DNA from: Patescibacteria group bacterium
GTDB lineage: Bacteria > Patescibacteriota > Minisyncoccia > UBA6257 > UBA9933
Reading direction: 5' to 3'
DNA length: 64,000 bases
Assembly (NCBI GenBank): GCA_038078555.1
Contig: JBBTYQ010000001.1
Coordinates: 60,966 to 124,965, forward strand
Every line of letters starts with the position of its first letter. Position 1 is the stretch's first letter. The notes beneath the pieces were generated by a model. It was given only the letters and a program-made list of their open reading frames with translations, ran no database searches and was not told where the DNA came from. Of this stretch, positions 1,462 to 49,557 are shown piece after piece. A program made the translations under genes and the position numbers.

Positions 1462-1495
1462 CGTTTTCCGTGATTTAGATAAATACTATCAAAAC

Positions 1496-1531
1496 AAAAA
1501 CAGCCCCGCAATGCAGAGCTGTTTTTTTTAT
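1496..1531. terminator. Bidirectional hairpin terminator between tgt and the large secreted-protein gene
   Basis: aaaacagccccgcaatgcagagctgtttttttt: a GC-containing stem flanked by an A-run and a T-run. Confidence 0.4.
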
Positions 1532-1540
1532 TGTTTATTT

Positions 1541-4500
1541 CTACTCCCCTATCTTCAACCAATTCCTATTCATAATGGAGAAGTCTATGGAATTAACTAT
1601 AGTGTCTTTGTTGATGTCAGAGATTGGGTCTGATAGAAACCATTTGGAAGATAACATGGAGTAATCAAGAGAATTGATGACATTGTCTTGATTTAAGTCT
1701 CCGGCTGGTAAGGTTGGAATAGTGATGGTTGAGTTATTGGTAAGACTGATATTAGTTTGTTTTTTGGATAAGTAATAAGGTGATGATACTTTAACGTCGT
1801 AAGTGCTTGGAGCAATGGTTATTGAAGATAAAGTTATTGAGTTAGCAGTCGGGTTTTGAGTTGCGGTGTAGATTGCGGTTGAAGAACCCGGATTGTAAAT
1901 AGAGATGGTAAAGCTGTTGGAATTAATAGTAGTGTTTCTTTCAAGAGATAGGTTGAAAGAAACATTGGAGGTAGTGGAGACTGGCGGAGCTTGAGTCGTG
2001 GCTGAGGCTGATACTGATTGAGCTGATACATTATTTGCGGCGTCATAAGCGGAAACCGTATAAGAGTATGAAGTGCTTGGAGATAAGCCGGTGTCTGAAT
2101 AACTGGTAGTATTGGAAGTTCCAATTTGCGTACCTCCCCGATATATTCTATAGCCTGTTACTCCGACGTTATCAGTCGAAGCAATCCAAGAGAGATTAAT
2201 TTGAGTTGAAGAGATTGCAGTGGCTGATAGGTTTGTGGGTACTGATGGAGCCGTGGTGTCAGAAGGCGGCGGAGGCGGGATGACTGAACCAGTATAATTA
2301 GAAACACTGGAAAGTTCTTGCAAGGAAAGAATTCTATTATAAATCATTACTTCGTCGATTTTTCCGTTAAATGCTTGAGAACCGCTTGTAAAGGCGCCGA
2401 TTATAAAATTACTGGCTGAATCGTCAGTGGGAGCGCCGCTGCCTATTGATCTTGAAGTATAAGCGGTCTCGCTTACGCTTCCACCTGAAGGCGCGGTATA
2501 AAATCTTATGCCGTCAGCGCTGGAAAATGTTATAGCCGCAAACTGCCAGGCGCCCAGCGTGATGGAATCACTGGCCGCCACGGTTGACGCAATTCCATTT
2601 GCTCTTGTAATAAACGAGGAGAAAGTATTTGGTGTTTGAAGTTTTGTTCTTTTGTATTCGGTTGTTAAAGTGGCCTTATTAAATAATCTTCCGGATGAAC
2701 TGCCTCCCAAAGTATTGGGTAAAATCCACATGGTAATGGTAAAAGGGTCTAAATTATCCATGATTGTCGGACTGCCCAAGTCAACCATGTCGTTTACTCC
2801 GTCAAAGTTTATGGCTCCATTTACTTTTCCGGTTGTCCAGGTCGGTCCATTGGTCAATGTTCCGCTGTTGTTACTTGAAGAATCATTGGCAATTAAGCCG
2901 CTTCCTTCGTCAAAATTCCAATAGCCTATTAAGTTAGAAGGTAGCTGACTTGAACCTCCTGCTAAAGCCACGGAAAAAGATATTAGATAATCATCAGGAT
3001 TAGAATTATTGGATTGGTCTTGGCATCTGATGTAATAGGAGTAAGCTGAACCGCTTGATAAACCTGTTATCAAGACTGAATGATTGGTTGAGTTGGTAGT
3101 GGAGAAAGTATTGGGTATTGAGGCGTATGAAGTATTTGCCGTAGTTGAATATTTGCAAGTGGCAGTTTCATTGGTTGATAAGGATAAGGTAGTTTGAGTG
3201 GTTGAAGAAGGCAGACTGCCTGATGGAGCTCCACTTGATCTTACAGGAGGAGTGATGTCAGCTGTCGGAGCTTGAGTTGTAGCTGAGGCTGAACTTGATT
3301 GAGCTGATACATTACCAGCCGCGTCATAAGCGGCAACTGTATAAGAGTAGGCTGTAGAAGCCGTAAGTCCGGTATTTGAATAAGTTGTATTGGCGGTGGT
3401 AGCAATTTGCGTACCTGCTCGATATATTCTATAGCCTGTTACTCCGACATTATCAGTAGAAGCAGTCCAAGAAAGATTAATTTGAGATTGGGAGATTGCA
3501 GTGGCGGATAAGCCAGTGGAAACTGAAGGAGCGGTAGTATCAGAAGGCGGTGGTGGTGGTGGCGGCAGAGTTCCCGAACAAGTTGATAAAAGACCGATAC
3601 ATTCAGTGCCTGTTTGATAAGCGCCCATTACTTGACTCGAGCGTCCATTGGCCGGATATGAAGTTCTTTTGAAATCAGCGGGTTGATTGAATGTTCCAGA
3701 AGAATTAAGAAAATTAGGATTTGTTGTTATAGAGTTTTCATCGCAATTTATTCCGGTCGTACAACCAGCCCCAGCCAAAAAAGATTTCCAAGCCGAAAGA
3801 GTGGTTCCTTTGGAAGAACCGTTTACCCACCAACTAGTATTGCCGGCTCCGCTGTAATAATCGTTGTAATCTATATAATCAAAATCAGAGATCGTCCAGT
3901 TGGAAGAATCAAAACCCAAAAAATTTCCGCCTGTAGCATGATAATGAATATTATTCCAAAAATGAGACGCCTGAGACGTGCTTTGCCAATAACCGATGTC
4001 TCTGATATTGTTGTAAAACGTATTATTCCTTACGTAAAAGTAATTAGGCGCCCCGTTAGCCACGGAAACAGCCGTGCCGTTGTTTATAAAAACATTCTGA
4101 TAAATATCCGACCAATCAATGCCTACTTGAGTGTCTCCTTCAATTCCTTGAGGCATATTATGAAAAAAATTATAGCGCGCAGTCATTTGATTACCGCGGT
4201 CTTTCCACTTTATGCCTGTATTAAGGCCATCATAGAATTCGTTATTCTCTAAAATCATGCCTTTTGTCCCGTATGTTAAAATAAGAACGTCATTTCCCGA
4301 CCCTTGGGCCATTGCAGGCAAATTGTCGTGAATTTTATTATTTCGAACAAGCAAGTTTTCCATCCAGTCTGTAGGCGTTGTATTGGGAGGATTGCCTGTG
4401 GTGCGGATAACTGCGGGAAATCCCTGATAATCGCCACCGCCAGATAAATCGTTATTCTGTATAATAGAATTATCTCCGCCAGCGCCGACGTGAATATTAC

Positions 4501-4933
4501 CCCAGACATAAAATCCATCAATCGTAACATTGGCCGCGCCGATGGAAATCGTTTTGCAAAATCCGCAAGTGTTATAAACATTGCTTGAATGATTATTTGT
4601 GCTGGAGATCCAGACTACTTCTCCTGGCGCGGCTTTCCAGGTTGTATTTGCCACCGTGGCCTGAATGGCAGCGGCTGTGGTTCCGCTGGTATAAACCGCT
4701 CCGCCGGCTCGGGCATGCACGATTACCGTATCGCCGGGAACAACTCGCGTTCCCGCGTACCAAGGAGTTTTCCAAGGAGTAGACGCTGAACCGTTGTTAG
4801 TATCGCTGCCATTGTCATAATCAACATGATAAGTGGCGGCTTGAACGCTTAAAGTACTAAATAAAATTCCGAAAAATAAAAGCAACGCGAAAAAACCGAA
4901 CCATTTTAATTTTGTTAAAATCATTGCAAGCAC
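1541..4933 (-). CDS. Large secreted multidomain surface protein: signal peptide, right-handed beta-helix region, FN3-like domain, concanavalin/LamG-like lectin domain, second FN3-like domain, Ig-like segment, C-terminal dockerin-like repeat pair
   Basis: 1130 aa with an N-terminal hydrophobic signal peptide. Parallel beta-helix style motifs (NNDLSGGG, NNKIHDN, many N/G-rich turns). Two near-identical modules of about 100 aa begin PPPPSDTTAPSV..INLSW.ASTDNVGVTGYRIYR. (FN3-like). The MVDLGSP..FTITMWI segment is typical of the LamG/ConA-like fold. The C-terminus GDLNQDNVINSLDYSMLSSKWF...SDINKDTIVNSIDFSIMNRNWL resembles a dockerin Ca-binding repeat pair. Confidence 0.75.
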   Translation of the reverse strand: MLAMILTKLKWFGFFALLLFFGILFSTLSVQAATYHVDYDNGSDTNNGSASTPWKTPWYAGTRVVPGDTVIVHARAGGAVYTSGTTAAAIQATVANTTWKAAPGEVVWISSTNNHSSNVYNTCGFCKTISIGAANVTIDGFYVWGNIHVGAGGDNSIIQNNDLSGGGDYQGFPAVIRTTGNPPNTTPTDWMENLLVRNNKIHDNLPAMAQGSGNDVLILTYGTKGMILENNEFYDGLNTGIKWKDRGNQMTARYNFFHNMPQGIEGDTQVGIDWSDIYQNVFINNGTAVSVANGAPNYFYVRNNTFYNNIRDIGYWQSTSQASHFWNNIHYHATGGNFLGFDSSNWTISDFDYIDYNDYYSGAGNTSWWVNGSSKGTTLSAWKSFLAGAGCTTGINCDENSITTNPNFLNSSGTFNQPADFKRTSYPANGRSSQVMGAYQTGTECIGLLSTCSGTLPPPPPPPSDTTAPSVSTGLSATAISQSQINLSWTASTDNVGVTGYRIYRAGTQIATTANTTYSNTGLTASTAYSYTVAAYDAAGNVSAQSSSASATTQAPTADITPPVRSSGAPSGSLPSSTTQTTLSLSTNETATCKYSTTANTSYASIPNTFSTTNSTNHSVLITGLSSGSAYSYYIRCQDQSNNSNPDDYLISFSVALAGGSSQLPSNLIGYWNFDEGSGLIANDSSSNNSGTLTNGPTWTTGKVNGAINFDGVNDMVDLGSPTIMDNLDPFTITMWILPNTLGGSSSGRLFNKATLTTEYKRTKLQTPNTFSSFITRANGIASTVAASDSITLGAWQFAAITFSSADGIRFYTAPSGGSVSETAYTSRSIGSGAPTDDSASNFIIGAFTSGSQAFNGKIDEVMIYNRILSLQELSSVSNYTGSVIPPPPPSDTTAPSVPTNLSATAISSTQINLSWIASTDNVGVTGYRIYRGGTQIGTSNTTSYSDTGLSPSTSYSYTVSAYDAANNVSAQSVSASATTQAPPVSTTSNVSFNLSLERNTTINSNSFTISIYNPGSSTAIYTATQNPTANSITLSSITIAPSTYDVKVSSPYYLSKKQTNISLTNNSTITIPTLPAGDLNQDNVINSLDYSMLSSKWFLSDPISDINKDTIVNSIDFSIMNRNWLKIGE
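1975..2290. repeat. DNA-level copy B of the intragenic FN3-module repeat; partner at about 3245-3570
   Basis: Both copies encode nearly identical protein segments (poly-Pro, SDTTAPSV...TGYRIYR...ATTQAP). The nucleotide sequences are visibly similar. Confidence 0.6.
3245..3570. repeat. DNA-level copy A of the intragenic FN3-module repeat
   Basis: See the partner copy at 1975-2290. Confidence 0.6.
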
Positions 4934-4947
4934 TTTATTTCCTTAAA

Positions 4948-6771
4948 TTACCAGATTATGCTTTTAAATGCTTTTATAAATATTGTAAGTATATTAGGCA
5001 TAATATCAGAAGGCGGCGGCGAAATAAATTTTTCTGAAGGAACCGGACTTAAAAACGGCTCTTTATAAAGTAAATTATCAACTGACTCCTGCGGTATCGG
5101 CATTAAAGGAGCAAATGGCGAAATTATCCTTTGGGGAGACATTATTTCCTGAGTTGGCATTTGTCCTTCCTCCATCATTTTCTTAATCATATCGGGGCTA
5201 GGAATTATATTCTGATAATTATTAGGCGCCTCTCCGTAAAATGGCATTTCTTTAGCCGGCATCATTTGACCTTCGAATCCTTCACGGAACATTTCGCTTG
5301 GAATTTCTCCTTGAGGCATTTCACGATAAGGTGCTTCTTTGAATCCTTCAGGAAGTCCTTTGGGCAAATTAGCTGGTTTAAATTTTTCGCATTCTTCTTT
5401 ATGTGTTTGGTCAGAACAATATCTCGTGCAATCTTCGAATCCCGAACAACCGCCCGGTCCTCTCATTCTTTCCGGACTGCCAATCATTGGCATGCCCTCT
5501 TGCAATCTTCCTTCTTGAAGTCTCGCTGATTCGCCTTGAATCATAGACTTAGGCCTAAACCCTTCAAAACATTTTCTCATAGAATCTCCTATTTGCGGTC
5601 CGGGCATCAAAACGCCGGCTTGAATTTTCTCCAAAATTTCCAGACCTAAGTTTGATTTTAAACATTCTTGAACCTCAGAAGGCGCTCCAGAAAAATCATT
5701 CTTCATATGTTCAATCCCTTCTCTCATGTTTTCAATATCTTTTTCCGGAATCAGTCCGTGCTCTTTAGCAAAACCAAAACAAACTTCTGCGTTATTTGAG
5801 TTATTACAATATGCTTCGCATTCTTCTTTGCCCCGGCAATCGCCCGGTCCTTTACCGCCGGTTTTTCTAAACATTTCAGCTTCTTCCGGTTTCATAAAAC
5901 CGGCTTTAATAGCAAAATTAGCGCATTCTTCCGAATGTGTTCCATCTTCGCAATATGCTTCGCATTCTTCTTTGCCCCGGCAATCGCCCGGCATCTCGCC
6001 CGCTATCATCAATGGCATAATTCTTCTGGCTTCTTCAACTTCTTTCTCCTCAATAAAACCGGCCGCCACGGCAAAATTAAAACATTCTTCCATGTGAATT
6101 GATTCGGAACAATACACATCGCATTCTTTTCTCCCTCGGCAGTTGCCCGGCGGATTAATACCGGACTTAATCGCTTTCATTGCTTTTTTTGCTTCTTTAA
6201 GTTCTTTCTCAGGCATAAAACCCGCTTGTTCGGCAAAAGCCAAACACTCTTCCATGTGCTCGGAGTTATCACAATATAATTCGCAGTCTTTTTTGTTTTT
6301 ACAGCCGCCAGGAAGAGTTGCTCCTTCTTTCACTGTCTTAGCAACTAGTCTAGCTTCCCTTAGCTCTTCTTCGGAAATCAAATCATTTTCCTCGGCAAAA
6401 TTCAAACAAACTTCCATATTATTGGGATTATCACAAAAAGTCTCGCATTCTTTTTTATTTTTGCAGCCAGCCGGACCTTCGCCTATTTTAATAAAAGCTT
6501 TTGCCTTTCTAGCTTCTTCCTTGGAAATTAAATTATTTTTTTCGGCAAAATTAACGCAAGCACCAATATTTTCCGGCTTATCACAATAAGTCCGGCATTG
6601 AGTTTCATTTTTACAATTGCCTAGTTCTTTTACTGGATAGCTGATATCTAATTGTTGTGTTCCGATTTCTGTTTCCTGCGCCTGAGCGATTATAAAATAG
6701 CTGGTAAAAAATCCAGTAGCAATGATAGCTGCGCCTAATATTAAATTTATATTTATTCGCATTATTTTCAT
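4948..6771 (-). CDS. Secreted Cys-rich tandem-repeat protein: eight repeats of about 42 aa of the form C-x6-C-x3-C-x7/8-C-x2-FA, followed by a Met/Pro/Gln-rich low-complexity tail
   Basis: 607 aa. Signal peptide MKIMRININLILGAAIIATGFF. Repeat units include CKNKKECETFCDNPNNMEVCLNFAEENDLISEEELREARL, CRGKEECEAYCEDGTHSEECANFAIKAGFM and similar. The tail is rich in MP..QM motifs. Confidence 0.75.
   Translation of the reverse strand: MKIMRININLILGAAIIATGFFTSYFIIAQAQETEIGTQQLDISYPVKELGNCKNETQCRTYCDKPENIGACVNFAEKNNLISKEEARKAKAFIKIGEGPAGCKNKKECETFCDNPNNMEVCLNFAEENDLISEEELREARLVAKTVKEGATLPGGCKNKKDCELYCDNSEHMEECLAFAEQAGFMPEKELKEAKKAMKAIKSGINPPGNCRGRKECDVYCSESIHMEECFNFAVAAGFIEEKEVEEARRIMPLMIAGEMPGDCRGKEECEAYCEDGTHSEECANFAIKAGFMKPEEAEMFRKTGGKGPGDCRGKEECEAYCNNSNNAEVCFGFAKEHGLIPEKDIENMREGIEHMKNDFSGAPSEVQECLKSNLGLEILEKIQAGVLMPGPQIGDSMRKCFEGFRPKSMIQGESARLQEGRLQEGMPMIGSPERMRGPGGCSGFEDCTRYCSDQTHKEECEKFKPANLPKGLPEGFKEAPYREMPQGEIPSEMFREGFEGQMMPAKEMPFYGEAPNNYQNIIPSPDMIKKMMEEGQMPTQEIMSPQRIISPFAPLMPIPQESVDNLLYKEPFLSPVPSEKFISPPPSDIMPNILTIFIKAFKSIIW
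5770..6620. repeat. Tandem repeats of about 126 bp encoding the Cys-rich modules
   Basis: Recurring nucleotide strings such as gcattcttctttgccccggcaatcgcccgg and ttcggcaaaattaa... at roughly 126-bp spacing. Confidence 0.55.
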
Positions 6772-6798: not shown

Positions 6799-7083
6799 CT
6801 ATTGAAAGGGGTTTTTATAAACCTCTTTAAACGGATTGATTTTGGCCTCAAAAGGGTTGGTTTTTGTCTCATACGGATTAGTTTGCGGAATTTCCGCGGC
6901 TGGATTTTTTATTTCTTCATAGATCTGGCCCCCTAAACTCTCCGTTGATTCTTTAACCGGAACAATTGGCACAATTGACTCGGTTATTTTTTGATAATAT
7001 TTTTTCCAGACATAAAATCCGGCGAAAATAGACAAGACCAAAATTATCCCTGAAATTATTAAAACAATTTTCTTCTTATTCAT
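6799..7083 (-). CDS. Small membrane-anchored protein with TNPxE/NPF repeats
   Basis: 94 aa. N-terminal TM helix. C-terminal repeats TNPYETKTNPFEAKINPFKEVYKNPF. Confidence 0.4.
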   Translation of the reverse strand: MNKKKIVLIISGIILVLSIFAGFYVWKKYYQKITESIVPIVPVKESTESLGGQIYEEIKNPAAEIPQTNPYETKTNPFEAKINPFKEVYKNPFQ

Positions 7084-11841: not shown

Positions 11842-12309
11842 ATGAAAACGCTGAAAGCAACTCTTTTTTTCCTCTTCTCCGCTTTCTTGCTTGGCTGCGC
11901 GCCTTATGATCAGTTGATTGTCCGGCCGGACATTTATGTTTCCGGCGACTTTAGAGGACCGCGCAGTCCCTACTCGAACTTTTATGACTACGGATTATAT
12001 TTCCCGTATGTCACGATTGTTCCGGTAAACGGAACGCCTTTTGAACTGGAAATATTCATCAACGGCAAACGAGCTGATATTTCGCTTGAAGGCAGCGTTA
12101 AGACAAAACGGATTCCGCCCGGAATGCCGGCTCAAATAAAGGCTTTTGTTGATTACCGCGTCAGCCGTCAGTTATCGGTAGTTGCCGTGGCTTACAAAAG
12201 CAATAAAGTTGTCGGCTCGGCAAACAGAGTGTTTTATTTTTACGGCCATGCCAACGCCGAACAAGTTGAGGACTGGCCGATACGCATCTGGGATCTCCGT
12301 GACCCGTGA
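11842..12309 (+). CDS. Lipoprotein of unknown function
   Basis: 155 aa. The signal peptide ends in lipobox LLGC. Confidence 0.55.
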   Translation: MKTLKATLFFLFSAFLLGCAPYDQLIVRPDIYVSGDFRGPRSPYSNFYDYGLYFPYVTIVPVNGTPFELEIFINGKRADISLEGSVKTKRIPPGMPAQIKAFVDYRVSRQLSVVAVAYKSNKVVGSANRVFYFYGHANAEQVEDWPIRIWDLRDP

Positions 12310-15914: not shown

Positions 15915-17030
15915 TTACTGGTTTTTAATTGGCATTAAAACATAAAACCAAGACTCGTCTTCGTTTGATCTAATAAGAGCTGGCTTGTTGGAACTGTTTA
16001 AGCCGAGAAAAATATTTTCTGATTTTATATTTTTTAATCCATCCAAAACAAATCGCCAATTAAAAACCGCCTCCATTGTCGCGCCGTTTATTTTTGCGGG
16101 TATTAAGTATTTATTTTCTCCAATAATTTGACTAAAAGAAAAAACCTCTATGCTTTTATTGCTTTCTTTTGTTATTATTTTTACCTCACTTAGTCTCTCC
16201 GCGAATATTCCGGCCAACTTAACCGCATTGATCAATTCTTCTTTGTTTATTATCACTTCGGTTTCGTAATTTTTTGGGATAATTTGCGTATATTCAGGAA
16301 ATTCGCCATTTATTAATCTTGAAATTATTTCTGTTTTTTCTGTTTTAAAAAGTATTTGATTTTGATCTAGGAAGATTGTTGTTTTTTCTTCGTCGTTGTT
16401 TTGCAATTCTTTTATTACCTCTTGAACTGCTTTTGATGGGATTATTATTTTGAATGGTTTATTAAAATTTGTATTGAATTGATTATTGTTGATTGTTTTT
16501 TCTGATAATCTAAAGCTGTCGGTTGTTACTATTTTTAGTGAATTTATTTGAAAATCAAATAAAACGCCGTTTAATTCTGGTTTGTTTTCAGCGGCAGTTG
16601 AATTAATAACAGAAGCCAGGGCGTCTCTTAAAATAAAATTTTTAATTTCTAAATGATTTTGCGTATTGGTAATTTGGGGAATAATCGGAAACTCTTCTTT
16701 TTTGGTGCCGTTTATTTCTGCTTGATAATTATCGGTTTTTATTAGTAATTTATTATTAATAATTTCTAGGGTTATTCTTTCGGTTTGAATATTATTAATA
16801 ATCGCTGAAAAAATATTTAAGGGAATTGTTAGTTCGCCGGTATTAATAATTTTTCCCGTTACAAAACTTGTTACTGCTAATTCCAGGTCGGTTGCTGATA
16901 ATTTTATTTTATTATCTTGAGTTTCTATTAAAAAATTTTTAAGTATCGGCAAACTAGAATTAGCCACGCTGATTCTTTCCAAAGATTTAATTCCTTCTTT
17001 TAAATTATTTTTTAAAATAATTAGATTCAT
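15915..17030 (-). CDS. dnaN: DNA polymerase III beta sliding clamp
   Basis: 371 aa, immediately downstream of dnaA. Three-domain length and the N-terminus MNLIILKNNLKEGIKSLERIS are typical of DnaN. Confidence 0.8.
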   Translation of the reverse strand: MNLIILKNNLKEGIKSLERISVANSSLPILKNFLIETQDNKIKLSATDLELAVTSFVTGKIINTGELTIPLNIFSAIINNIQTERITLEIINNKLLIKTDNYQAEINGTKKEEFPIIPQITNTQNHLEIKNFILRDALASVINSTAAENKPELNGVLFDFQINSLKIVTTDSFRLSEKTINNNQFNTNFNKPFKIIIPSKAVQEVIKELQNNDEEKTTIFLDQNQILFKTEKTEIISRLINGEFPEYTQIIPKNYETEVIINKEELINAVKLAGIFAERLSEVKIITKESNKSIEVFSFSQIIGENKYLIPAKINGATMEAVFNWRFVLDGLKNIKSENIFLGLNSSNKPALIRSNEDESWFYVLMPIKNQ

Positions 17031-17195
17031 AGCAATTTTGTTTATACTATTATTACTATTACTATTATTAATATATTAATATAGTAGCAGTAGTAGGGGG
17101 TTGTTAATTTGTGGACAAACGCATTTTCCCTTTATTTAAATAGATTTTTTAATAGAAATTATTTAATTACCTGGGGAAAAGCAGTGGATTTATTT
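17031..17195. promoter_or_regulatory. AT-rich dnaA-dnaN intergenic region with DnaA-box-like 9-mers; candidate oriC or DUE component
   Basis: tgtggacaa (1 mismatch to the reverse complement of TTATCCACA) and agtggattt, plus AT-rich tracts such as tattattactattactattattaatatattaatata. Confidence 0.3.
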
Positions 17196-18551
17196 CTAAA
17201 CACTTTCGTAAATATTTTCTTTAATTAATAAAATTTTTTGATTTAAATCGTGATTCTTGTTGATTTCCCTGGATATTTTTTCAAAAGAATGAATTGCTGT
17301 TGTGTGGTCCCTTTTCCCTATCTTATCCCCAATGTCAGGGTAAGACATCCTCAGGATATCCCGAAGCAAAAACACCGCAACTTGCCTTGGTTCAATAACT
17401 CTTTTTCTTCTTGAATGGTTGCTTATTTCTTCCGGAAGAATTTCAAAAAAAGCAGCAACCGCCTTAATTACTTGGTCAGAAGAAATTTTCTTAGTTGATT
17501 GCTGAAGAGTGTTATTAATGATTTCTTCTATCATTTTAGGCTGGAGCTCTATATTTTTAACTTCTTGGTAAAATATTATTTTATTTATAATACCCTCAAC
17601 CTCTCTGATGTTTCTTTGGACTTTTGAGGCGATGATTGAGCATAAATTATCCGGCAACACTTTTTTCATCTCCTGAAGCTTTGTTTTTATGATTGCCATG
17701 CGCATTTCATAATCAGGATAAGTAATATCAGCCGCCATGCCTCCCTCAAAGCGCGATCGGAGCCTTTCGTGGAGCGTAGGAATGGCTGACGGCGGGCGAT
17801 CCGAAGAAATAATTATTTGCTTATTGTTTTCATAAAGAACATTGAATGTGTGGAAAAATTCTTCTTCGCTTCGCTCCTTGCCGCCGATAAATTGAATATC
17901 GTCAATTATTAAAACATCAACATTACGGTAAATATTTTTTATATCATCCATTCTTTTATTACGGATCGCCGAAACTACTTCGTTGACAAATTTTTCTGAA
18001 TGAACATATTTAACTCTCACTTTATTTTTATGAGTTTTTTTTATTTCGTTGCCGATGGCCTGGATAAGATGTGTTTTACCAAGCCCTGTTCCGCCGTAAA
18101 TGAAAAAAGGATTATATTTTTTTCCGGGGTTTTTAATAATAGCCAATGACGCGGCATAGGCCAGTTCGTTTGACGAGCCGACGACAAAAGATTCTAAATT
18201 ATATTTCGGATGAAGGCCGGACTCCGGATCTATTTTAAATTCCGGAAAAACCAACTGCTTTTCTGTTTCATTTTCTTGGATAGTTTTAAACAGATCAGCT
18301 TTTTCGTTAAGAATGGCATATTCTATTTTTTTTATCGAAGGGTCGTGAGACCTAAGAGATTCAAAAATAATTTTATGGTACTTATTGGCCACCCATTCTT
18401 TGGCAAAATTATTGGATAAGCCGATAGAAACGCATCCCTCATCTGTTTTTTTGAGCAAACGGCTGTTTTTCATCCAAGTAAGGAAATTAGGCCGCGATAT
18501 TTGAATTTCTATTTCCGCTAAAGCGGTTTGCCAAAGCTGTTCAATGTCCAT
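17196..18551 (-). CDS. dnaA: Chromosomal replication initiator DnaA
   Basis: 451 aa. Walker A GGTGLGKTHL, AAA+ motifs, and a C-terminal DnaA-box-binding HTH region. Confidence 0.9.
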   Translation of the reverse strand: MDIEQLWQTALAEIEIQISRPNFLTWMKNSRLLKKTDEGCVSIGLSNNFAKEWVANKYHKIIFESLRSHDPSIKKIEYAILNEKADLFKTIQENETEKQLVFPEFKIDPESGLHPKYNLESFVVGSSNELAYAASLAIIKNPGKKYNPFFIYGGTGLGKTHLIQAIGNEIKKTHKNKVRVKYVHSEKFVNEVVSAIRNKRMDDIKNIYRNVDVLIIDDIQFIGGKERSEEEFFHTFNVLYENNKQIIISSDRPPSAIPTLHERLRSRFEGGMAADITYPDYEMRMAIIKTKLQEMKKVLPDNLCSIIASKVQRNIREVEGIINKIIFYQEVKNIELQPKMIEEIINNTLQQSTKKISSDQVIKAVAAFFEILPEEISNHSRRKRVIEPRQVAVFLLRDILRMSYPDIGDKIGKRDHTTAIHSFEKISREINKNHDLNQKILLIKENIYESV

Positions 18552-18733: not shown

Positions 18734-20428
18734 ATGTATATGCACTATAGCATGAATAATTCAAATTTTAATATTAAGGAAAAACTAAAGCAAATCTGGC
18801 AAGCCGGAAAAGAAAGAGAAGCCCAAAAACTTGCCAAAAATTTAAACCAAAACTATCTTGATTTGACAACTGCTTCAATAAACATTGAGGCTCTAGCTCT
18901 GATTCCCGAAGAAAATGCCAAAAAAGCCAAGGCTTTGGCGGTTAGTTTAAAAAATAATAATCTTGCCGTGGCGGTTGTTGATTTAAGCCTGACCGAAACT
19001 AAGGAAGAGATTAAAAATTTGGAAGCCAAAGGATTCAAGCTGAAGATTTTTATAGTTTCTTTAAAAAGTTTTGACTACGGATTTGGTTTTTATAAGTTTA
19101 TTTCCGAAAAAAAAAATCAAATTACCGGAAAAGTAGGGCTGGAAAAAGAAAAATTTTCGGAAATCAGAAAAAAAATTAATTCACTGAAAGATTTTACCGA
19201 ATTACTTTCTTCGGCATATGAAGAAAAAGGTGATGTCGCCGAAATTTTGGAAATAATTTTTGCCGGCGCTTTAATTAATCGAGCTTCCGATATTCACCTT
19301 GAGTCTGAAGAAAAAAGCGTCAATTTGAAAATTAGAGTTGACGGTTTGATGCGCAAAGTTTTTTCCGGAATAGAAAAAGAATTTTATGAACACCTGCTTT
19401 CCAGAATTAAACTGCTTTCCGGTTTAAAGATTAATATTCACGACGAGCCGCAAGACGGCCGGTTTACCATCGAATTTCCCGAAAAAAAAATTGAAACAAG
19501 AATAGCGATTGCGCCGTCAGAATTTGGAGAAGTGATTGTCATGCGCTTGCTTGATCCCGACAGCATTAATATTTCTTTAATTAGTTTAGGATTAAGAACA
19601 GACGATTTAAAAATTATAGAAAACGAGCTTAAAAAACCCAACGGTCTTATTTTAAATACCGGACCGACCGGTTCCGGAAAAACCACCACTCTTTATGCTT
19701 TTTTAAGCCACAAAAAAAATCCCGAAATTAAGCTAATCACCATAGAAGACCCGATAGAATATCACATGGAAGGCATTGAACAAACCCAGGTTGATGCAGA
19801 AAGCGGTTATACTTTTGCCACTGGGCTAAGGTCTTTAATGAGGCAAGATCCGGACGTTATTTTAGTTGGAGAAATAAGAGACAAAGAAACCGCTGAAATA
19901 GGTATTCAAGCGGCTTTAACGGGCCACCTGGTGTTTTCCACGATTCACGCCAACGCTTCAAGCGGCGCTATCCCCCGCTTGCTTGATTTGGGCGTAAAAG
20001 CAACAAGCATCGGCCCGGCTTTAAATTTAATTATCGGACAAAGGCTGGTTCGCCGGCTTTGTCCTGATTGTAAAAAAACCAAATCAATTGAGCCTGACTT
20101 AGAAAGCAAAATCCGCTCTTTTTTAAAAAAACTGCCTTCTCGAGCAAGCGCGGAACAATATAATGATATTAAAATCTATGAGGCTGTGGGCTGTGATAAG
20201 TGCGGCAATTTTGGATATAAAGGAAGAATCGCTATTTATGAGCTTTTAATAGTTGATAACTCTTTAGAAGAATTAATTGCGCAAGAAGCTGGCGAGCCTA
20301 GAATACAAGAGCTCGCCTCAAAACAAGGCATGACAACAATGCAGCAGGATGGTATATTAAAAACGATTTCAGGCATTACCACTTTTGATGAGGTTGAAAA
20401 TGTTACCGGGCCGCTCGAGTGGCAGTAA
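18734..20428 (+). CDS. Type II/IV secretion-system ATPase (GspE/PilB family)
   Basis: 564 aa. Walker A GPTGSGKTTTLYA, Walker B and His box, and a C-terminal Zn tetracysteine CPDC...CDKCG. The true start may be an internal Met. Confidence 0.85.
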   Translation: MYMHYSMNNSNFNIKEKLKQIWQAGKEREAQKLAKNLNQNYLDLTTASINIEALALIPEENAKKAKALAVSLKNNNLAVAVVDLSLTETKEEIKNLEAKGFKLKIFIVSLKSFDYGFGFYKFISEKKNQITGKVGLEKEKFSEIRKKINSLKDFTELLSSAYEEKGDVAEILEIIFAGALINRASDIHLESEEKSVNLKIRVDGLMRKVFSGIEKEFYEHLLSRIKLLSGLKINIHDEPQDGRFTIEFPEKKIETRIAIAPSEFGEVIVMRLLDPDSINISLISLGLRTDDLKIIENELKKPNGLILNTGPTGSGKTTTLYAFLSHKKNPEIKLITIEDPIEYHMEGIEQTQVDAESGYTFATGLRSLMRQDPDVILVGEIRDKETAEIGIQAALTGHLVFSTIHANASSGAIPRLLDLGVKATSIGPALNLIIGQRLVRRLCPDCKKTKSIEPDLESKIRSFLKKLPSRASAEQYNDIKIYEAVGCDKCGNFGYKGRIAIYELLIVDNSLEELIAQEAGEPRIQELASKQGMTTMQQDGILKTISGITTFDEVENVTGPLEWQ

Positions 20429-34368: not shown

Positions 34369-34442
34369 TTTATTGACTTCAGTATAAATAGATGTTTTGT
34401 TTAATCAAGCACCTTAACTTTAACAAAAATGGAGAGCCTAAG

Positions 34443-34811
34443 ATGGAAGAGATAAAAGAGACGAAAGGAGGAATTGAGGTCAGAGAAACGGCAAGATCGC
34501 TTAAAAATAAATTTATAGCCCTTGTTCAGAAATATTGTCCCAATTTTCAAGTAGACGACGGCATAGAAAACCTCGCTTTTTTTAAAAAAGAAAGTTTATT
34601 TTCAAAAATTTTTATCGGCAAAGAAAAATCAGTTATGTATGTGTTTCGTTTGGACGGAAATATTGGAGGTTTGGATCTTTTCGAAGCCGGAGAATGGTCG
34701 GATATAAAAATTGTGGCTGAAGAGGAAAAATATCTTGTTGGTGTTATAAAGATTGCCGGTGAGTATGGAAAAATCAGCGGGAAAAGAGTGGTTATTGATA
34801 GAAGTTTTTAA
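34443..34811 (+). CDS. Hypothetical protein; start taken at the internal Met with SD ggagag
   Basis: About 123 aa with no recognisable motifs. The track ORF begins at 34392, which would overlap the tRNA promoter region. Confidence 0.4.
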   Translation: MEEIKETKGGIEVRETARSLKNKFIALVQKYCPNFQVDDGIENLAFFKKESLFSKIFIGKEKSVMYVFRLDGNIGGLDLFEAGEWSDIKIVAEEEKYLVGVIKIAGEYGKISGKRVVIDRSF

Positions 34812-34962: not shown

Positions 34963-36174
34963 ATGTTTATGAATGGCGAGAAAATAAAGAGTTTTGGCAA
35001 AGTTTTTTGGGGACCAGTGGTGATTGTTTGCGGAGTTTCTTTTTTTCTTGATCTTGTTTGGTTATCAAGATACTCAATGTCAGGAGAAGCGTTTGGTTTA
35101 GATATAAAGTGGAACTGGGGTTTGGCCGCGTTTCTTGCTCAATTGTTTTATCTTATAGCCAGTCTTCGGATGGTTGGACCTACGGAACTCGGGGCAAGGC
35201 TTTTTTTCGGAAAGCCTTTAAGCGAAATTTCATCTGGCTTGGTTTTTATTCCATTCGGGATTTGTGAGCTTAAGACAGAAACTCGGCTTACAATTCAGGA
35301 TGAAATTCCTGGTCCGCCCGAGCGCATCTGGAGAGAAAAGAAAGGGGAAGAAGGAGGAGAAGTTCCTTTAGGATATGTCCCTCCCATTAGGATTCCCTTC
35401 GGGTTTCCAAGAAGCGCAAAAGATCTCAAGGATTTAAGCATCAAGACTCCGGGGGGAGATGGGAAGCATTTAGATGCTCCGCCTGAAAATGATGCGCTCA
35501 ATATCAGAATTACAGCTGAAGTTGTTCCGGTAATACGTTGGCGAATTTCGGACTATCTTAAATTTTTAACCACAATCGGAAGCAGAGAAGAGGCGCGCAG
35601 GCAATTAGAAGACTGCGCTGTCGGCTCTCTTATAAGAGAATTTGCTAAGATTGCGCCTGCAGTTGCCTTGGCGAATCTCGGGACATACAGCTTTAATCTA
35701 GGAAAAGAAATAGAAGAACGGATTAAAGGATGGGGCATCGAGTTGGTGAGCTCTCAGATCAAAATGATTCAGTTTCATCGCGACTTGAATGAAGCCATAA
35801 GTAAGGTGTCGCAGGCAAAACTTGAAGCCGAAGCTCTTATTGCTTCGGCTGAAGCAAGAAAAAAAGAAGAACATCTTTTAGGTGAAGGAAAAGGAGCTGC
35901 GGAAAAAGCTGTACTTGACGGAAGAACGGAAGGTTTAAGAAATATGATAAAAGCGCTTGAAGTGCCGGCGCAGGTTATAATCGGCGCAGAAACAGCCAGG
36001 AAGATTACAGAAAATCCGGGTCAGAAAACAATAGTTGCCGGATCAGCTGGATTTGCTGATCTTATGGCAATAGGTTCTGTTTTAGGAGAGTCTCTCAAGG
36101 GAGAATCTCCAAAAAAAGAGTCTCTTAAGAAAGATTTTAAGAAAGAAGAGAATAAAAAGGAGGAGAAAAAATGA
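34963..36174 (+). CDS. SPFH/band-7 (stomatin/flotillin/HflKC-like) membrane protein
   Basis: 403 aa. N-terminal TM. SPFH core GLVFIPFGICELKTETRLTIQDE ... NIRITAEVVPVIRWRISDYLKF ... REEARRQLEDCAVGSLIREF. Ala/Glu-rich coiled coil AKLEAEALIASAEARKKEE. Strong SD aaaggagg. Local GC is visibly higher than in neighbouring genes. Confidence 0.65.
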   Translation: MFMNGEKIKSFGKVFWGPVVIVCGVSFFLDLVWLSRYSMSGEAFGLDIKWNWGLAAFLAQLFYLIASLRMVGPTELGARLFFGKPLSEISSGLVFIPFGICELKTETRLTIQDEIPGPPERIWREKKGEEGGEVPLGYVPPIRIPFGFPRSAKDLKDLSIKTPGGDGKHLDAPPENDALNIRITAEVVPVIRWRISDYLKFLTTIGSREEARRQLEDCAVGSLIREFAKIAPAVALANLGTYSFNLGKEIEERIKGWGIELVSSQIKMIQFHRDLNEAISKVSQAKLEAEALIASAEARKKEEHLLGEGKGAAEKAVLDGRTEGLRNMIKALEVPAQVIIGAETARKITENPGQKTIVAGSAGFADLMAIGSVLGESLKGESPKKESLKKDFKKEENKKEEKK

Positions 36175-36716
36175 GATTGGAGATGATTGTCTTCTTTGGT
36201 GCATTAGCGGCGATGATTTTTTATATGCTTCGCCGTCAAAGAATCAGAACTAAAGAAGCTAAAACAAATGGGCAGATAGGACCTGAAAAGCCAGCTAAGG
36301 ATGTTGTTAAAAAAGAAAAGAAAAAAAGCAGCATTTTTGGCACGGTGATAGTTCTTCTGATACTCGTACCTATCGGTTATTTGGGGTATGAGAAGTTAAG
36401 AGAAACTCAGCCGAGAACGCAGGCGATGGAATACGCGCTTTGCGCCGGAGGCGTTTATGACTTTGCCAATAACAAAATTCCTGGTAAAGTGCGAGTTGTT
36501 TTTAGGAATGATTGCTGGACTCAAGTAACTCTTCCTGCCACGGTAAGAGCCAGGACCGATTTCGACACAGATGCCGAGCTTGTTTTCATCGACGGAGCGC
36601 GGTATGTCGACGGTCCGGGCCGTCAGATATGGTACGGGAAATTCAGTCGCGAACTTTTTAAAGTTCGCGGAATAACTTCAAATGGGATTTTAAAAATCTC
36701 GTTTGAAGTAAGGTAG
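36171..36716 (+). CDS. Membrane protein translationally coupled to the SPFH gene (ATGA overlap); possible NfeD-like partner, function unknown
   Basis: 181 aa. Two TM helices, then a Cys-containing soluble C-terminal domain. Confidence 0.45.
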   Translation: MRLEMIVFFGALAAMIFYMLRRQRIRTKEAKTNGQIGPEKPAKDVVKKEKKKSSIFGTVIVLLILVPIGYLGYEKLRETQPRTQAMEYALCAGGVYDFANNKIPGKVRVVFRNDCWTQVTLPATVRARTDFDTDAELVFIDGARYVDGPGRQIWYGKFSRELFKVRGITSNGILKISFEVR

Positions 36717-37592: not shown

Positions 37593-37955
37593 TTAAATTA
37601 ATTTTGCTCCTAAGGCTTCTTGAATAATGTAAATTACGCCCCACGAACAGATGATAACGGCATAACCTATTGCGGCCCACATAATTGTCTTCCTTCCGCT
37701 TATTACTTGATCCGGCTTGTCGCCGGCGGTAAGTATCAAAAATCCGCCGTAAAGCACCATTAAAGCGACAATTGGGGCGCCGAGCTTGATTAAATAGCCG
37801 ATAATTCTTTGAACTAATTGAAGAAAAGTTTGGTCTTGCAAAGGATCTCTTAATCCTCCTGTTTCAAGAACTCCGGCAGCCAAAGCTGTTTGAAGCGAAA
37901 AGAAATAAGCAGAAACAAAAAACGATAAAATGTATTTTTTTGAGAAATTACCCAT
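37593..37955 (-). CDS. Pilin-like small secreted two-TM protein, paralog 2
   Basis: 120 aa. Signal peptide. ...LMVLYGGFLILTAGDKPDQVISGRKTIMWAAIGYAVII.. Same topology and the same LT(A/S)xGD motif. Confidence 0.5.
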   Translation of the reverse strand: MGNFSKKYILSFFVSAYFFSLQTALAAGVLETGGLRDPLQDQTFLQLVQRIIGYLIKLGAPIVALMVLYGGFLILTAGDKPDQVISGRKTIMWAAIGYAVIICSWGVIYIIQEALGAKLI

Positions 37956-38025
37956 TTATTTTATTATTTGATAATTGATATTTAAAGTCAATCCCGCGCG
38001 ATTTATGATTTTGTGGCACAGATAT

Positions 38026-38436
38026 TTAACAGTGGATTGCCGTTCTTATTTCCAATGGATTAAACGGCTGGCCGGTTAAAAGCATAAGCAATTCTTTGAT
38101 TATCAGCCAGGCGGCTAGCGCTATTAAGAGCCCGATTACCGCGGCTTTAATAACATCTCCCCCTCTTTTGAGTTCGCTGGCAGAGTCTCGGCTTATCATA
38201 ATTACAAAACCGCCGTAAATTATGAAAATAACTGTTAAAGGAATAGCAACGCTATAAAGCGCAAAATTTATAATATTTTCTCCGAGAGTCAGTAAATCGC
38301 AAAACTTGCAACTTGCTCCTTCGCAAGGAATAAGCCCGGCGGCGCTTGCCATAAAAGGAGAATTTAAAATCGTAAACAAAAAAATAACAGCATAAAAAGC
38401 AAAAATTTTAAATTTTAAATAATTTTGACTTTTCAT
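38026..38436 (-). CDS. Pilin-like small secreted two-TM protein, paralog 1 (more divergent, Cys-containing)
   Basis: 136 aa. Signal peptide. ...FIIYGGFVIMISRDSASELKRGGDVIKAAVIGLLIALAAWLI... Confidence 0.45.
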   Translation of the reverse strand: MKSQNYLKFKIFAFYAVIFLFTILNSPFMASAAGLIPCEGASCKFCDLLTLGENIINFALYSVAIPLTVIFIIYGGFVIMISRDSASELKRGGDVIKAAVIGLLIALAAWLIIKELLMLLTGQPFNPLEIRTAIHC

Positions 38437-46468: not shown

Positions 46469-47770
46469 ATGGTTGAAATTTATAAAGGCATTCTTCAGAG
46501 TATTTTTCAGGCGTTTTCTTACAGCTGGTGGATTGTTTTGCCGATTTTTTTGTTTTCGATTTTTTGGAAAGTTTGGATAATTTATATTCGGACAAGGACT
46601 ATCAGCAAAATCAAATGGAAGCTTTTTGAAATTAAAGTTACCACGGAAGTTTTGAAAACTCCTAAATCAATGGAGCAAGTGATTGCCGGTCTTTATGCTT
46701 CTTATTCTTACGGCCTTAATTGGCTAAAGAAATACGTTGATGGTGAAGTTGAAAAACGGTTTTCTTTGGAAATGGTCGGCACTTCCAGCGGCGTTTATTT
46801 TTATATTTATGCTCCGGCTGACAGCCAGAATTTGGTGGAATCGGCTGTTTACGGTCAGTATCCTGAAGCGGAAATAAATGAAGTTGAAGATTATGCCGAT
46901 TTTGTTTCTTCGGTTTTGCCCAATGAAGTTTATGATGTTTTTGGCATGGAACTGGGACTGGCTAGAGATAGTTTTTATCCGATTAAAAGATATTATTATT
47001 TTGAGGCAATGGTTGAAGAACAGCGCATTGACCCTATAGCTGCCATTTCCGAAGTAATGTCAAAATTAAAAGAAGACGAAAAAATCTGGATTCAGATTTT
47101 AATCAGTCCGACCGGATCAGCTACCGGCAACGACTGGAAAAAAGAAGGTGAGAAAAAAATAGACGAAATTATCGGCCGGAAAAAAGACAAGAAATCCGGA
47201 GGATTTTTTAGCGACATCAATGTTTTTATCAATAATTTTTTATGGGCGCCGGTGGAGCCTCCGATTTGGCCGGGCGAAAAAAAACCCGATGCGCCGACTA
47301 ATAGAACTCTTTCTCCGGATGAACAGGACTTAGTTAAAGAAATTTACAATAAAATTTCTTATTTGGGTTTTGAGTTTTTAATCCGGTTCGTTTATATTGA
47401 CCGGCAAGATAGTTTTTCGCCCGCCAATGTTTCGGCGATAATGGGCGCTTTGCATCAGTTTAACACCCAAAATCTTAATGCTTTTAAGCCCAATACCATG
47501 ACTATAACTAATTACGATTCTTTATTAGCCAGAATTTTTCCCTCGTATAAAAAAATGATAGTGCTTTACAAAAAAAGAAGATTATTCAATTATTATAAAC
47601 AAAGAAGATTCGGGCAATTTAATAAAATCAGAGAAGAGAAGTTTTCCGTATTAAATACGGAAGAATTGGCAACTATTTTTCACTTCCCGACCGTTATTGT
47701 GAAAGCGCCTTCGCTTAAGAGGGTTGAAGCCAAAAAAGGAAGTCCGCCTTCTGGGTTGCCCACAGAATAA
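46469..47770 (+). CDS. Hypothetical membrane-anchored protein (N-terminal TM, large soluble domain)
   Basis: 433 aa with no recognisable motifs. Located immediately upstream of the VirD4-like ATPase. Confidence 0.45.
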   Translation: MVEIYKGILQSIFQAFSYSWWIVLPIFLFSIFWKVWIIYIRTRTISKIKWKLFEIKVTTEVLKTPKSMEQVIAGLYASYSYGLNWLKKYVDGEVEKRFSLEMVGTSSGVYFYIYAPADSQNLVESAVYGQYPEAEINEVEDYADFVSSVLPNEVYDVFGMELGLARDSFYPIKRYYYFEAMVEEQRIDPIAAISEVMSKLKEDEKIWIQILISPTGSATGNDWKKEGEKKIDEIIGRKKDKKSGGFFSDINVFINNFLWAPVEPPIWPGEKKPDAPTNRTLSPDEQDLVKEIYNKISYLGFEFLIRFVYIDRQDSFSPANVSAIMGALHQFNTQNLNAFKPNTMTITNYDSLLARIFPSYKKMIVLYKKRRLFNYYKQRRFGQFNKIREEKFSVLNTEELATIFHFPTVIVKAPSLKRVEAKKGSPPSGLPTE

Positions 47771-47797: not shown

Positions 47798-49264
47798 ATG
47801 GATAATAACAGCGAAACAACTTTATTCGGAAAAACTACTTTTAGAAATCAAATGGTTCGTTTTGGCATCAAAACCGACGATCGTCGCCGGCATGTTTATA
47901 TTGTTGGTAAAACCGGTGTCGGCAAAACAACGCTTTTGGAGAGTTTGACTATAGCTGACATTAGAGCTGGCCGCGGTTTGGCTGTGGTTGACCCTCACGG
48001 CGAGTATGCTGAACGAATGTTGGAATTTATTCCGGAAAATAGAATTGACGATGTTATTTATTTTAACCCGGCTGACCTTAGTAATCCGATTGCTTTTAAT
48101 CCCCTGGAGTCAATTGACCCGGAATATCGCCATTTAGTTGCCTCAGGCATTATGGGCGTGTTTAAAAAAATTTGGCCCGATGTTTGGTCAGCCAGAATGG
48201 AATATATATTAAACAACGCTCTTGTGTCGCTTTTGGAATATCCCGGCGCAACTTTGCTTGGCATCATGAGAATGCTTTCGGAAAAAGATTATCGAGCTAA
48301 GGTGGTGGAAAATTTGAAAGACCCGGTTGTAAAAGCTTTCTGGGTTAATGAGTTCGCCCGTTATACTCAAAGACTTGAAACCGAAGCAGTAGCGGCTATT
48401 CAAAACAAAGTCGGCCAATTCGTGACTAATCCTATGGTGAGAAATATTATAGGCCAGCCTCATTCCACTATCGATATGAGAAAAATAATGGATGAAGGAA
48501 AAATTTTAATTGTTAATCTTTCTAAGGGAAGAATCGGCGAAGATAATTCAGCTCTTTTGGGAGCAATGATGATTACCAAGCTTCAGTTGGCGGCTATGTC
48601 GAGAGTTGACACGCCGATGGAAAAGCGCCGTGATTTTTATCTTTACGTTGACGAATTTCAGAATTTTGCCACCGAATCTTTCGCTGATATTTTATCGGAA
48701 GCGAGGAAATACCGCCTTAATTTAATCTTGGCCCATCAATATATTGAACAGCTTTCCGAAGAAGTTCAGGCTGCTGTTTTCGGCAATGTCGGCACCTTGG
48801 TTTGTTTTAGAGTCGGCGCCACAGATGCTGAATTCCTGGAAAAAGAATTAATGCCGGAATTTAATGCTCAAGACTTAGTCAATTTGTCAAAATATAATAT
48901 TTATTTGAAGCTGATGATTGACGGCATGGCTTCCAAGGCTTTTTCCGCTCAGACTCTTGACCCGTTTGAGCCGGCCATAGAATCTTTTAAAGACGTTATT
49001 ATTCAAAACAGCCAAAACAAATACGGCGTCCCCCGTTCTATTATTGAAGAAAAAATCGCTGAAGAGTGGAAATCTGAAGCGAAAATTTTTGAAGATAAAA
49101 CTTTGCGCCGCAGCGAACAGCCTCTTTCCAAAATTCTTACTCCTCAAGGCGTACCTTTTAAAAAAGAAGCTGCACCTTCAAGAGAAAGAGAAAAAAAAGA
49201 AGTTGATGTTGATGAATTAAGGAGAGCGATAGAGGAATCGTTAAGAAAAAGAGAAGATAAATAA
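47798..49264 (+). CDS. Soluble P-loop ATPase of the VirD4/TraD/TrwB (FtsK-HerA superfamily) coupling-protein type
   Basis: 488 aa. Walker A GKTGVGKTTLLE followed by VVDPHGEY. Walker B FYLYVDEFQNF. ARKYRLNLILAHQYIEQL matches the RK(F/Y)G...Q...QL signature of TraD/TrwB/VirD4. No TM segments. Confidence 0.5.
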   Translation: MDNNSETTLFGKTTFRNQMVRFGIKTDDRRRHVYIVGKTGVGKTTLLESLTIADIRAGRGLAVVDPHGEYAERMLEFIPENRIDDVIYFNPADLSNPIAFNPLESIDPEYRHLVASGIMGVFKKIWPDVWSARMEYILNNALVSLLEYPGATLLGIMRMLSEKDYRAKVVENLKDPVVKAFWVNEFARYTQRLETEAVAAIQNKVGQFVTNPMVRNIIGQPHSTIDMRKIMDEGKILIVNLSKGRIGEDNSALLGAMMITKLQLAAMSRVDTPMEKRRDFYLYVDEFQNFATESFADILSEARKYRLNLILAHQYIEQLSEEVQAAVFGNVGTLVCFRVGATDAEFLEKELMPEFNAQDLVNLSKYNIYLKLMIDGMASKAFSAQTLDPFEPAIESFKDVIIQNSQNKYGVPRSIIEEKIAEEWKSEAKIFEDKTLRRSEQPLSKILTPQGVPFKKEAAPSREREKKEVDVDELRRAIEESLRKREDK

Positions 49265-49528: not shown

Positions 49529-49557
49529 AAAAGCGCAAACTTAGTTTGCGCTTTTTT
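49529..49557. terminator. Bidirectional terminator
   Basis: aaaaagcgcaaacttagtttgcgctttttt. Confidence 0.55.

Follow-up and report, generated by a model that had tools for sequence, protein, structure and literature searches.

Gene and domain architecture

The 64,000-nucleotide stretch of Patescibacterial DNA analysed here (hereafter the window; contig JBBTYQ010000001.1, positions 60,966 to 124,965) carries at 1541-4933, on the minus strand, a gene for a secreted multidomain protein of 1130 amino acids that ends in a dockerin. This protein, and the cohesins encoded next to its relatives, are the subject of the present analysis. The open reading frame (ORF) begins with GTG and comprises 1130 codons plus a stop codon. 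A first-pass annotation made by eye from the letters had placed it at the same position, and this is confirmed both by the ORF list and by 100% identity of the product to the NCBI entry 'MAG: LamG-like jellyroll fold domain-containing protein [Patescibacteria group bacterium]', which begins at Met4 and is thus 1127 amino acids long. An identical gene is found on the ENA contig Hain_H41_01um_R2_16_length_243117, on which the window spans roughly 60,966-124,965 and whose name points to the 0.1-um filter fraction of groundwater from the Hainich well H41. The Hainich H41 dataset is described in PMC8672522, where dockerins are not mentioned.

From the N- to the C-terminus, the protein consists of a signal peptide, a parallel beta-helix, an FN3 module, an FN3-like domain, a LamG domain, a further FN3 module, an Ig-like segment and the dockerin; all are encoded on the minus strand. 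The signal peptide (residues 1-33, 4835-4933) was read by eye from the translation and shows a basic n-region, the hydrophobic core WFGFFALLLFFGILFSTL and a cleavage-type site between VQA and AT. The domain order proposed in the first-pass annotation holds, except that the FN3-like domain had been missed. Pfam likewise recovered fn3 (PF00041), Laminin_G_3 and Dockerin_1, whereas the beta-helix is without a Pfam match and its fold is backed by homologues and a structural model.

The C-terminal X-dockerin-like unit

Residues 980-1130 comprise an X-module-like beta-sandwich of the Ig/transthyretin-like type (residues 980-1075, 1709-1996), delimited by co-conservation, the AlphaFold model and matches to known X-dockerin (XDoc) structures in the PDB, followed by the dockerin itself (residues 1076-1130, 1544-1708). 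Profile, motif and predicted structure all give good support to the identity of the dockerin. Dockerin_1 (PF00404) matches residues 1077-1123 of the full protein with 23.5 bits (cutoff 22.9), and the score rises to 37.2 bits (E 3.3e-9) when the 151 residues 980-1130 are scanned alone. The two 22-residue repeats that had been taken for dockerin repeats on first inspection are indeed F-hand repeats (residues 1078-1099, nt 1637-1702, and residues 1105-1126, nt 1556-1621). Their calcium loops, DLNQDNVINSLD and DINKDTIVNSID, each span 12 residues with D/N at positions 1, 3, 5, 9 and 12, and across an alignment of 40 sequences each of these is either invariant or conserved to at least 90%. Residues D1090, W1098, D1106, N1114, D1117, N1124 and W1125 are invariant across the same alignment. 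Dockerin_1 was found in 38 of 40 relatives of the C-terminal unit, and CarboxypepD_reg in 7 of 40. In the AlphaFold model of the two-domain unit, which reached a predicted local distance difference test score (pLDDT) of 96.1 and a predicted template modelling score (pTM) of 0.88, dockerin helices lie at fragment residues 109-116 and 136-144, and the dockerin of 2y3n_B superposes on the modelled one with a root-mean-square deviation (rmsd) of 0.9 A.

The first-pass annotation listed the Ig-like segment and the dockerin as separate items. Both are present, but they appear to constitute one conserved XDoc-like module, because they are co-conserved, meet at a fixed junction, are modelled as a two-domain unit and match XDoc structures throughout. 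A word-index search with the last 151 residues returned nothing; relatives were found by an exhaustive HMMER search with residues 980-1130 that covered 1.84 billion representatives and yielded 2297 cluster representatives at E<=1e-3, of which 409 reached E<=1e-10. Alignments of the best relatives mostly span the Ig-like domain as well as the dockerin, and the junction between the two is gap-free, with zero length variation in the 40-sequence alignment. The position of the unit is strictly C-terminal, ending at most 3 residues from the C-terminus in 143 of 151 relatives. While no PDB sequence match covers residues 980-1130, the ten best PDB structure matches of the modelled unit are all type II XDoc chains from cohesin complexes (TM-score 0.62-0.73 over ~160 columns, rmsd 3.1-4.3 A, identity 18-22%). 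They include chains of Clostridium thermocellum CipA/CipB (2b59_B, 5g5d_B, 4fl4, 3kcp, 5m0y_B, 5k39_B) and the ScaA XDoc (4u3s_B, 4wi0_B).

The beta-helix domain

Homologues, AlphaFold and Foldseek identify residues 34-455 (3569-4834) as a right-handed parallel beta-helix. On the sequence itself, the Beta_helix, NosD and Pectate_lyase profiles of Pfam gave no match at E<=1, and a sequence comparison with the PDB gave none at E<=0.1. However, 35 homologues were retrieved, mostly stand-alone proteins of 420-500 amino acids, most of which carry PF13229/PF05048 (Beta_helix/NosD), and also PF22842. The AlphaFold model built on the homologue alignment is a right-handed beta-helix of stacked short strands (pLDDT 92.5, pTM 0.93). 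The nearest folds found by Foldseek are beta-helix carbohydrate enzymes, with probability 1.0 for many of them: lacto-N-biosidases of glycoside hydrolase (GH) family GH136, the polysaccharide lyase (PL) Pel9A of family PL9 (TM-score 0.52/0.55), a PL9 rhamnogalacturonan lyase and GH120 XylC. An asparagine ladder (N281, N304/305, N328/329, N358) is invariant in the family, which also conserves D163, D169, H203, E230, K245, R254, D356, K423 and R424 on successive rungs. Such a series of charged residues is the pattern expected of an active-site or ligand groove, and would be consistent with either.

The predicted fold is thus supported, whereas assignment to an enzyme family is not. The PL9 enzymes Pel9A (1RU4) and rhamnogalacturonan lyase (5OLQ), the GH136 enzymes (7V6I, 5GQC) and GH120 XylC (3VST) resemble the modelled domain in fold, size and charged rung residues, but they differ from it by low identity (11-16%), TM-scores of 0.42-0.52 and the lack of any shared profile membership, and the likeness is to a predicted fold. 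Membership in the CAZy families considered (PL1, PL9, PL6, GH28, GH136) was rejected, with no sequence match, an identity of 8-17%, TM-scores of at most 0.55 and catalytic residues that could not be mapped.

FN3, FN3-like and LamG modules

The central part of the protein begins with a poly-proline linker (residues 456-463), which precedes FN3 module 1 (residues 464-556, 3266-3544; Pfam fn3 and PDB sequence matches). An extra FN3-like beta-sandwich follows (residues 557-662, 2948-3265), with a weak Pur_ac_phosph_N/DUF7800 match at 587-647, then a LamG/concanavalin-A-like lectin domain (residues 663-885, 2279-2947) and FN3 module 2 (residues 886-979, 1997-2278). In a Pfam scan of the whole protein, fn3 matched at 468-552 and 898-967 (E 5.5e-17), and the FN3 domain of chitinase A1 (1k85) was recovered as a PDB sequence match (E 3.8e-17). 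Laminin_G_3 (PF13385) matched residues 711-874 with 58.5 bits against a cutoff of 27.6 (E 1.1e-15), covering profile positions 1-150 of 151, and the LamG domain also matched PDB 4qvs (E 2.7e-5). An NCBIfam label, 'exoglucanase CbhB', was rejected (194.8 bits against a cutoff of 1950, the FN3 region alone being covered).

Proteins from the cohesin clusters of related genomes described below contain homologues of the FN3, FN3-like and LamG modules, with E values from 1e-21 to 8e-36. The FN3-like module has a homologue in a cohesin protein of another Patescibacterium (L003:2626-4407, E 8.5e-34), and the LamG domain has one in a dockerin protein that adjoins a cohesin cluster (L016:1035-3974, E 1.3e-21).

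The two FN3 modules share 81% protein identity. That they are near-identical and correspond to DNA repeats of about 300 bp had been noticed from the sequence, and a repeat search bore this out: the copies at 1981-2278 (module 2) and 3262-3559 (module 1) are 81-86% identical. They lie 1281 nt, that is 427 codons, apart and in frame, which would make recombination and length variation between them plausible.

A paralogue, P0042, is encoded at one end of the same contig (L001, contig coordinates 1-12758) and has the same N-terminal layout of beta-helix, FN3 and FN3-like modules. It shares 54% identity with the 1130-amino-acid protein in the beta-helix and ~90% in the FN3 and FN3-like modules, and is cut by the contig end within an FN3 module. 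P0042 and the gene before it lie at L001 10001-12757 and 8673-9917, respectively; the product of the latter shows a weak pilin-type N_methyl match together with a LamG domain homologous to that of the protein studied here (E 2.8e-17).

XDoc modules and cohesins in related genomes

A locus scan with a 6-sequence alignment, taking one genome per species, gave 78 XDoc loci. The best full-length matches are all from Patescibacteria (Parcubacteria, Azambacteria, Doudnabacteria, Berkelbacteria, Nomurabacteria, Daviesbacteria and "Saccharibacteria"), and weaker ones came from Armatimonadota, Chloroflexota, Kiritimatiellota and others. Among the full-length relatives (n=73), 62 carry Dockerin_1 and 6 carry Pfam Cohesin. 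The closest relative, P0156, itself combines a cohesin with an XDoc module, and a phmmer search with its cohesin matched 23 of 151 relatives. The first-pass annotation had called a dockerin unexpected in a reduced genome. This expectation was not borne out, as the module occurs commonly among Patescibacteria and a Saccharibacterium has been reported to have an essential dockerin protein (PMC10633639).

The linkage to cohesins extends to the level of loci and genes. In 24 of the 78 XDoc loci, one to five cohesin ORFs (mostly two or three) lie on the same strand within 6 kb of the XDoc gene, and 12 of the 38 ORFs with a complete module also bear cohesins. Three arrangements recur: a cohesin of ~215 amino acids after an N-terminal membrane helix, five of which score 29.6-40 bits against a Pfam Cohesin cutoff of 24.1; a signal peptide followed by one or more cohesins, Ig domains and XDoc; and a signal peptide followed by a cohesin and FN3, one such protein ending in PG_binding_1 (L002:7080-8651). 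Clusters of cohesin and XDoc genes lie at L016 4030-7562, L011 257-3308, L018 1974-5843, L019 3989-7647, L023 2290-5290, L005 3443-8473, L008 5545-10305 and L002 5644-8651. In L016, a LamG-XDoc cargo gene sits immediately upstream of a membrane-anchored cohesin. Proteins that bear both a cohesin and an XDoc module could in principle chain head to tail. We also observed that the membrane-helix cohesin of ~215 amino acids, the cohesin-Ig-XDoc protein with its signal peptide and the cohesin-FN3 protein make up a conserved Patescibacterial cluster. Among open-access papers and bioRxiv preprints, none was found that describes cohesins or cohesin-XDoc clusters for Patescibacteria.

The protein studied here does not itself contain a cohesin domain, as judged by Pfam and by a custom hidden Markov model (HMM) built from 56 Patescibacterial cohesin domains. 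As the first-pass annotation had stated, none was found in the window: Pfam identified no cohesin among the ORFs of at least 120 amino acids, and with the custom HMM no ORF of at least 50 amino acids scored above 5 bits. Five ORFs considered as divergent cohesins (11842-12309, 34392-34811, 36171-36716, 46469-47770 and 49541-49918) all remained below 5 bits with the custom HMM and were rejected.

Proposed role in surface display

Taken together, we propose with moderate confidence that the 1130-amino-acid protein is a glycan-targeting cargo tethered to the cell surface via cohesin-XDoc docking, with a partner cohesin that this genome would be expected to encode. Judging from its signal peptide, the protein would be exported by the Sec pathway. 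Its XDoc module would then dock in a calcium-dependent manner with a cohesin borne by a protein anchored in the membrane or wall, as suggested by its fold and position and by the linkage in relatives. The FN3-type spacers would project the beta-helix and LamG domains, which, going by their folds and conserved residues, may bind or cleave a host or matrix polysaccharide; the target would probably be the host cell envelope or the extracellular matrix. For the gene at 1541-4933, the hypothesis predicts a surface-displayed glycan-binding or glycan-cleaving protein.

More tentatively, Patescibacteria may possess a cohesin-XDoc display system of their own, in which small membrane- or peptidoglycan-anchored cohesins hold cohesin-Ig-XDoc adaptors, which might stack on one another, and an extensive, largely unannotated set of XDoc cargo, including the protein described here. 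We regard this broader proposal as possible rather than probable. If it were true, it would represent a general means by which the phylum arms its surface for host attachment and feeding, and one that we did not find in the open-access and bioRxiv literature. Discussion of how the ultra-small, host-dependent Patescibacteria attach to other cells and exploit them has so far centred on type IV pili. The XDoc tag offers a molecular hypothesis, and the module could serve as a sequence handle with which to inventory the surface "toolkit" of genomes of this kind. It would also extend the principle of XDoc anchoring from cellulolytic Firmicutes to another phylum and another purpose.

Several observations weigh against the proposed role. 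No cohesin was found by Pfam or the custom HMM in the window together with the flanks L080, L082 and L001 (the contig end with the paralogue), ~97 kb in total. The inference in the first-pass annotation that a dockerin implies a cohesin partner is supported indirectly, by relatives in other Patescibacteria whose modules are often fused to or lie beside cohesins. In addition, the likeness to XDoc is structural only, at 18-22% identity, and based on a predicted model, and the beta-helix fits no characterised enzyme family, so that its role could be purely adhesive. The treatment of partnerless dockerins in Peer et al. (2009, PMC3035643) presents non-cellulosomal dockerins without a known cohesin as widespread. 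If a partner cohesin were absent from the genome, the protein would be one more modular secreted protein with an orphan dockerin, and the XDoc unit might act as a calcium-stabilised C-terminal cap, as a direct binder of peptidoglycan or of host-surface glycans or proteins, or as a self-association module. Besides the points just named, this explanation is in line with the 54 of 78 related XDoc loci that have no cohesin within 6 kb and with the interpretation of dockerin repeats of Omnitrophota as adhesins (PMC10066038). We nevertheless consider it rather unlikely, given that the module is fused to cohesins in 12 of the 38 ORFs with a complete module, that anchored cohesins adjoin it in many Patescibacteria and that each of the closest structures is an XDoc dyad bound to a cohesin. 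Moreover, cargo genes can sit far from the cluster within one genome: in CAZRVD01, a cargo XDoc gene has no cohesin nearby (L013) and the cohesin cluster is found on another contig (L016). Because of this example, that no cohesin adjoins the present gene argues only weakly for a genome without one.

A released exo-enzyme, that is, a soluble polysaccharide lyase or hydrolase whose dockerin binds the cohesins of other cells or is vestigial, appears improbable. The PL9, GH136 and GH120 enzymes among the nearest folds, the stand-alone beta-helix homologues without an anchor and the conserved charged groove would all fit such a protein. However, relatives encode cohesins in the same genomes, with membrane or peptidoglycan anchors, the beta-helix is at best a putative enzyme, and the weaker relatives in Armatimonadota, Chloroflexota and Kiritimatiellota say nothing about cross-species docking. 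It is very improbable that the gene is an assembly chimera joined across near-identical FN3 or dockerin repeats of paralogues. The FN3 modules are indeed ~80-90% identical within the gene and to P0042, whose contig ends within FN3, and a replicate assembly breaks within the first F-hand repeat of the dockerin. Against this, the ORF runs uninterrupted for 3.4 kb, two long contigs on record encode the identical full protein, and the replicate contig shows 0 mismatches over 1380 nt to the 3' end of the gene plus tgt. Architectures of these classes (Beta_helix, LamG, fn3, dockerin) also recur in unrelated metagenomes, for example in P0098. The surface-tethered cargo is our preferred interpretation.

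In the replicate assembly (ENA ERZ1292624), which was made independently from the same population, positions 1-213 of L081 correspond to window positions 1462-1674, and the sequence starts at ...SLDYSMLSSKWF, inside the first F-hand. That it ends there with 0 mismatches suggests that the conserved dockerin DNA occurs in more than one copy in the genome or the population, which breaks assemblies.

Comparison with known systems

Clostridia anchor their scaffoldins through type II cohesin-XDoc pairs, and XDoc anchoring is known from cellulolytic Firmicutes. In the clostridial pairs (CipA XDoc with SdbA/ScaC, 2B59 and 5G5D; A. cellulolyticus ScaA, 4U3S and 4WI0), as in residues 980-1130, an Ig-like X module abuts a dockerin with two F-hands, and placement at the C-terminal end and packing as a single unit are shared with our predicted model. 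The partner cohesins are envelope-anchored, as are the partner-type cohesins in relatives of the 1130-amino-acid protein. In contrast to the clostridial systems, the XDoc module here rides on a cargo-type protein (beta-helix, LamG, FN3) and not on a cohesin-bearing scaffoldin, and anchoring in relatives is by an N-terminal membrane helix or by PG_binding_1 instead of S-layer homology (SLH) domains. Further differences are the lack of cellulases, the short spacing between the repeats (27 residues), the identity of 18-22% and a structure that is predicted, not solved. The protein may therefore resemble type II cohesin-XDoc anchoring in its way of working, but membership in type II cannot be claimed, because an identity of 18-22% does not establish sequence kinship, the module sits on cargo and no partner cohesin was found in the ~97 kb of this genome.

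The protein was also rejected as a strict cellulosome component, with no GH, cellulase or carbohydrate-binding module (CBM) family detected in its sequence. A search for a scaffoldin with several cohesins found none in the ~97 kb. The term cellulosome-like, which had been applied to it at first, is not supported in the plant-cell-wall sense.

The survey by Peer, Smith, Bayer, Lamed and Borovok (2009, PMC3035643) predates Patescibacterial genomes. Its account of non-cellulosomal dockerins resembles the present case in that a dockerin is found on a non-cellulose protein of an organism without a cellulosome, and it differs from the fixed X-Doc unit, phylum-wide occurrence and gene-level cohesin linkage seen here. 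Within the Patescibacteria, the cultivated Southlakia epibionticum (Saccharibacteria) has an essential envelope protein with a dockerin domain, SEML1_0315, which was reported alongside an FN3 protein, SEML1_0890, and a VCBS protein, SEML1_0891 (Wang et al. 2023, PMC10633639). Its authors propose that SEML1_0315 targets host glycans for adhesion or degradation, and the paper never mentions cohesins. In terms of domain description, the 1130-amino-acid protein would likewise be a Patescibacterial envelope protein with a dockerin. The giant adhesin-like ORFs of Omnitrophota (PMC10066038) similarly combine Laminin_G_3 with non-cellulosomal dockerins on surface proteins of ultra-small host-dependent bacteria, but those are giant and multi-dockerin proteins, whereas a single C-terminal XDoc module is borne here by 1130 amino acids.

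Base composition, neighbouring genes and other features of the window

The gene had been described as more GC-rich than the core genes. This is the case, if modestly (GC content 0.426 against a gene mean of 0.381, standard deviation 0.035), but nothing supports it as a sign of anything special. The excess lies wholly at codon position 2 (0.522 against 0.333), while GC content at codon position 3 (GC3) is normal (0.366 against 0.358). For this reason, the higher GC content reflects the Ser/Thr/Ala/Gly/Pro-rich composition of the protein. A foreign origin was rejected on the grounds of GC3 at the genome mean and the excess at codon position 2.

Upstream on the minus strand, a gap of 14 nt separates the gene from one for a secreted protein of 607 amino acids (4948-6771), which is in turn separated by 27 nt from a gene for a 94-amino-acid protein with an N-terminal membrane helix (6799-7083). 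Together, the three genes probably form one transcription unit, with 6799-7083 first and 1541-4933 last. A terminator-like hairpin with a 14-bp stem and a T-run (1496-1526, minus strand) starts 15 nt past the stop codon of 1541-4933; its stem is far longer than any other, and the total of terminator-like sites is not above that of shuffles. The 607-amino-acid protein is built of at least five tandem four-cysteine modules of ~50 amino acids with the pattern 'GxCx6Cx2YCx8Cx2FA', and it has no Pfam match, no PDB sequence match and no relative across the 78 XDoc loci. As the cohesin HMM was blank as well, nothing favours it as a hidden cohesin or scaffold. The 94-amino-acid protein has an NPF/NPY-rich tail and no family match.

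Elsewhere in the window, an ORF for 155 amino acids at 11842-12309 on the plus strand has a GC content of 0.48 and a GC3 of 0.52 against a gene mean of 0.36, is without a Pfam match and may be non-coding or foreign. The window also encodes a PilB/T2SSE-type ATPase (18734-20428), two pilins of the type IV secretion system type (TrbC/VirB2-like, 37593-38436) and a VirD4/TrwB-like coupling ATPase (47798-49264), all of them parts of the pilus/type IV secretion apparatus discussed for Patescibacteria. Its core genes include dnaA, dnaN, rpoB and rpoC. With dnaN and dnaA on the minus strand at and around 15915-18551 and a cumulative GC-skew minimum at ~15-19 kb, the 15-19 kb region is likely the replication origin.

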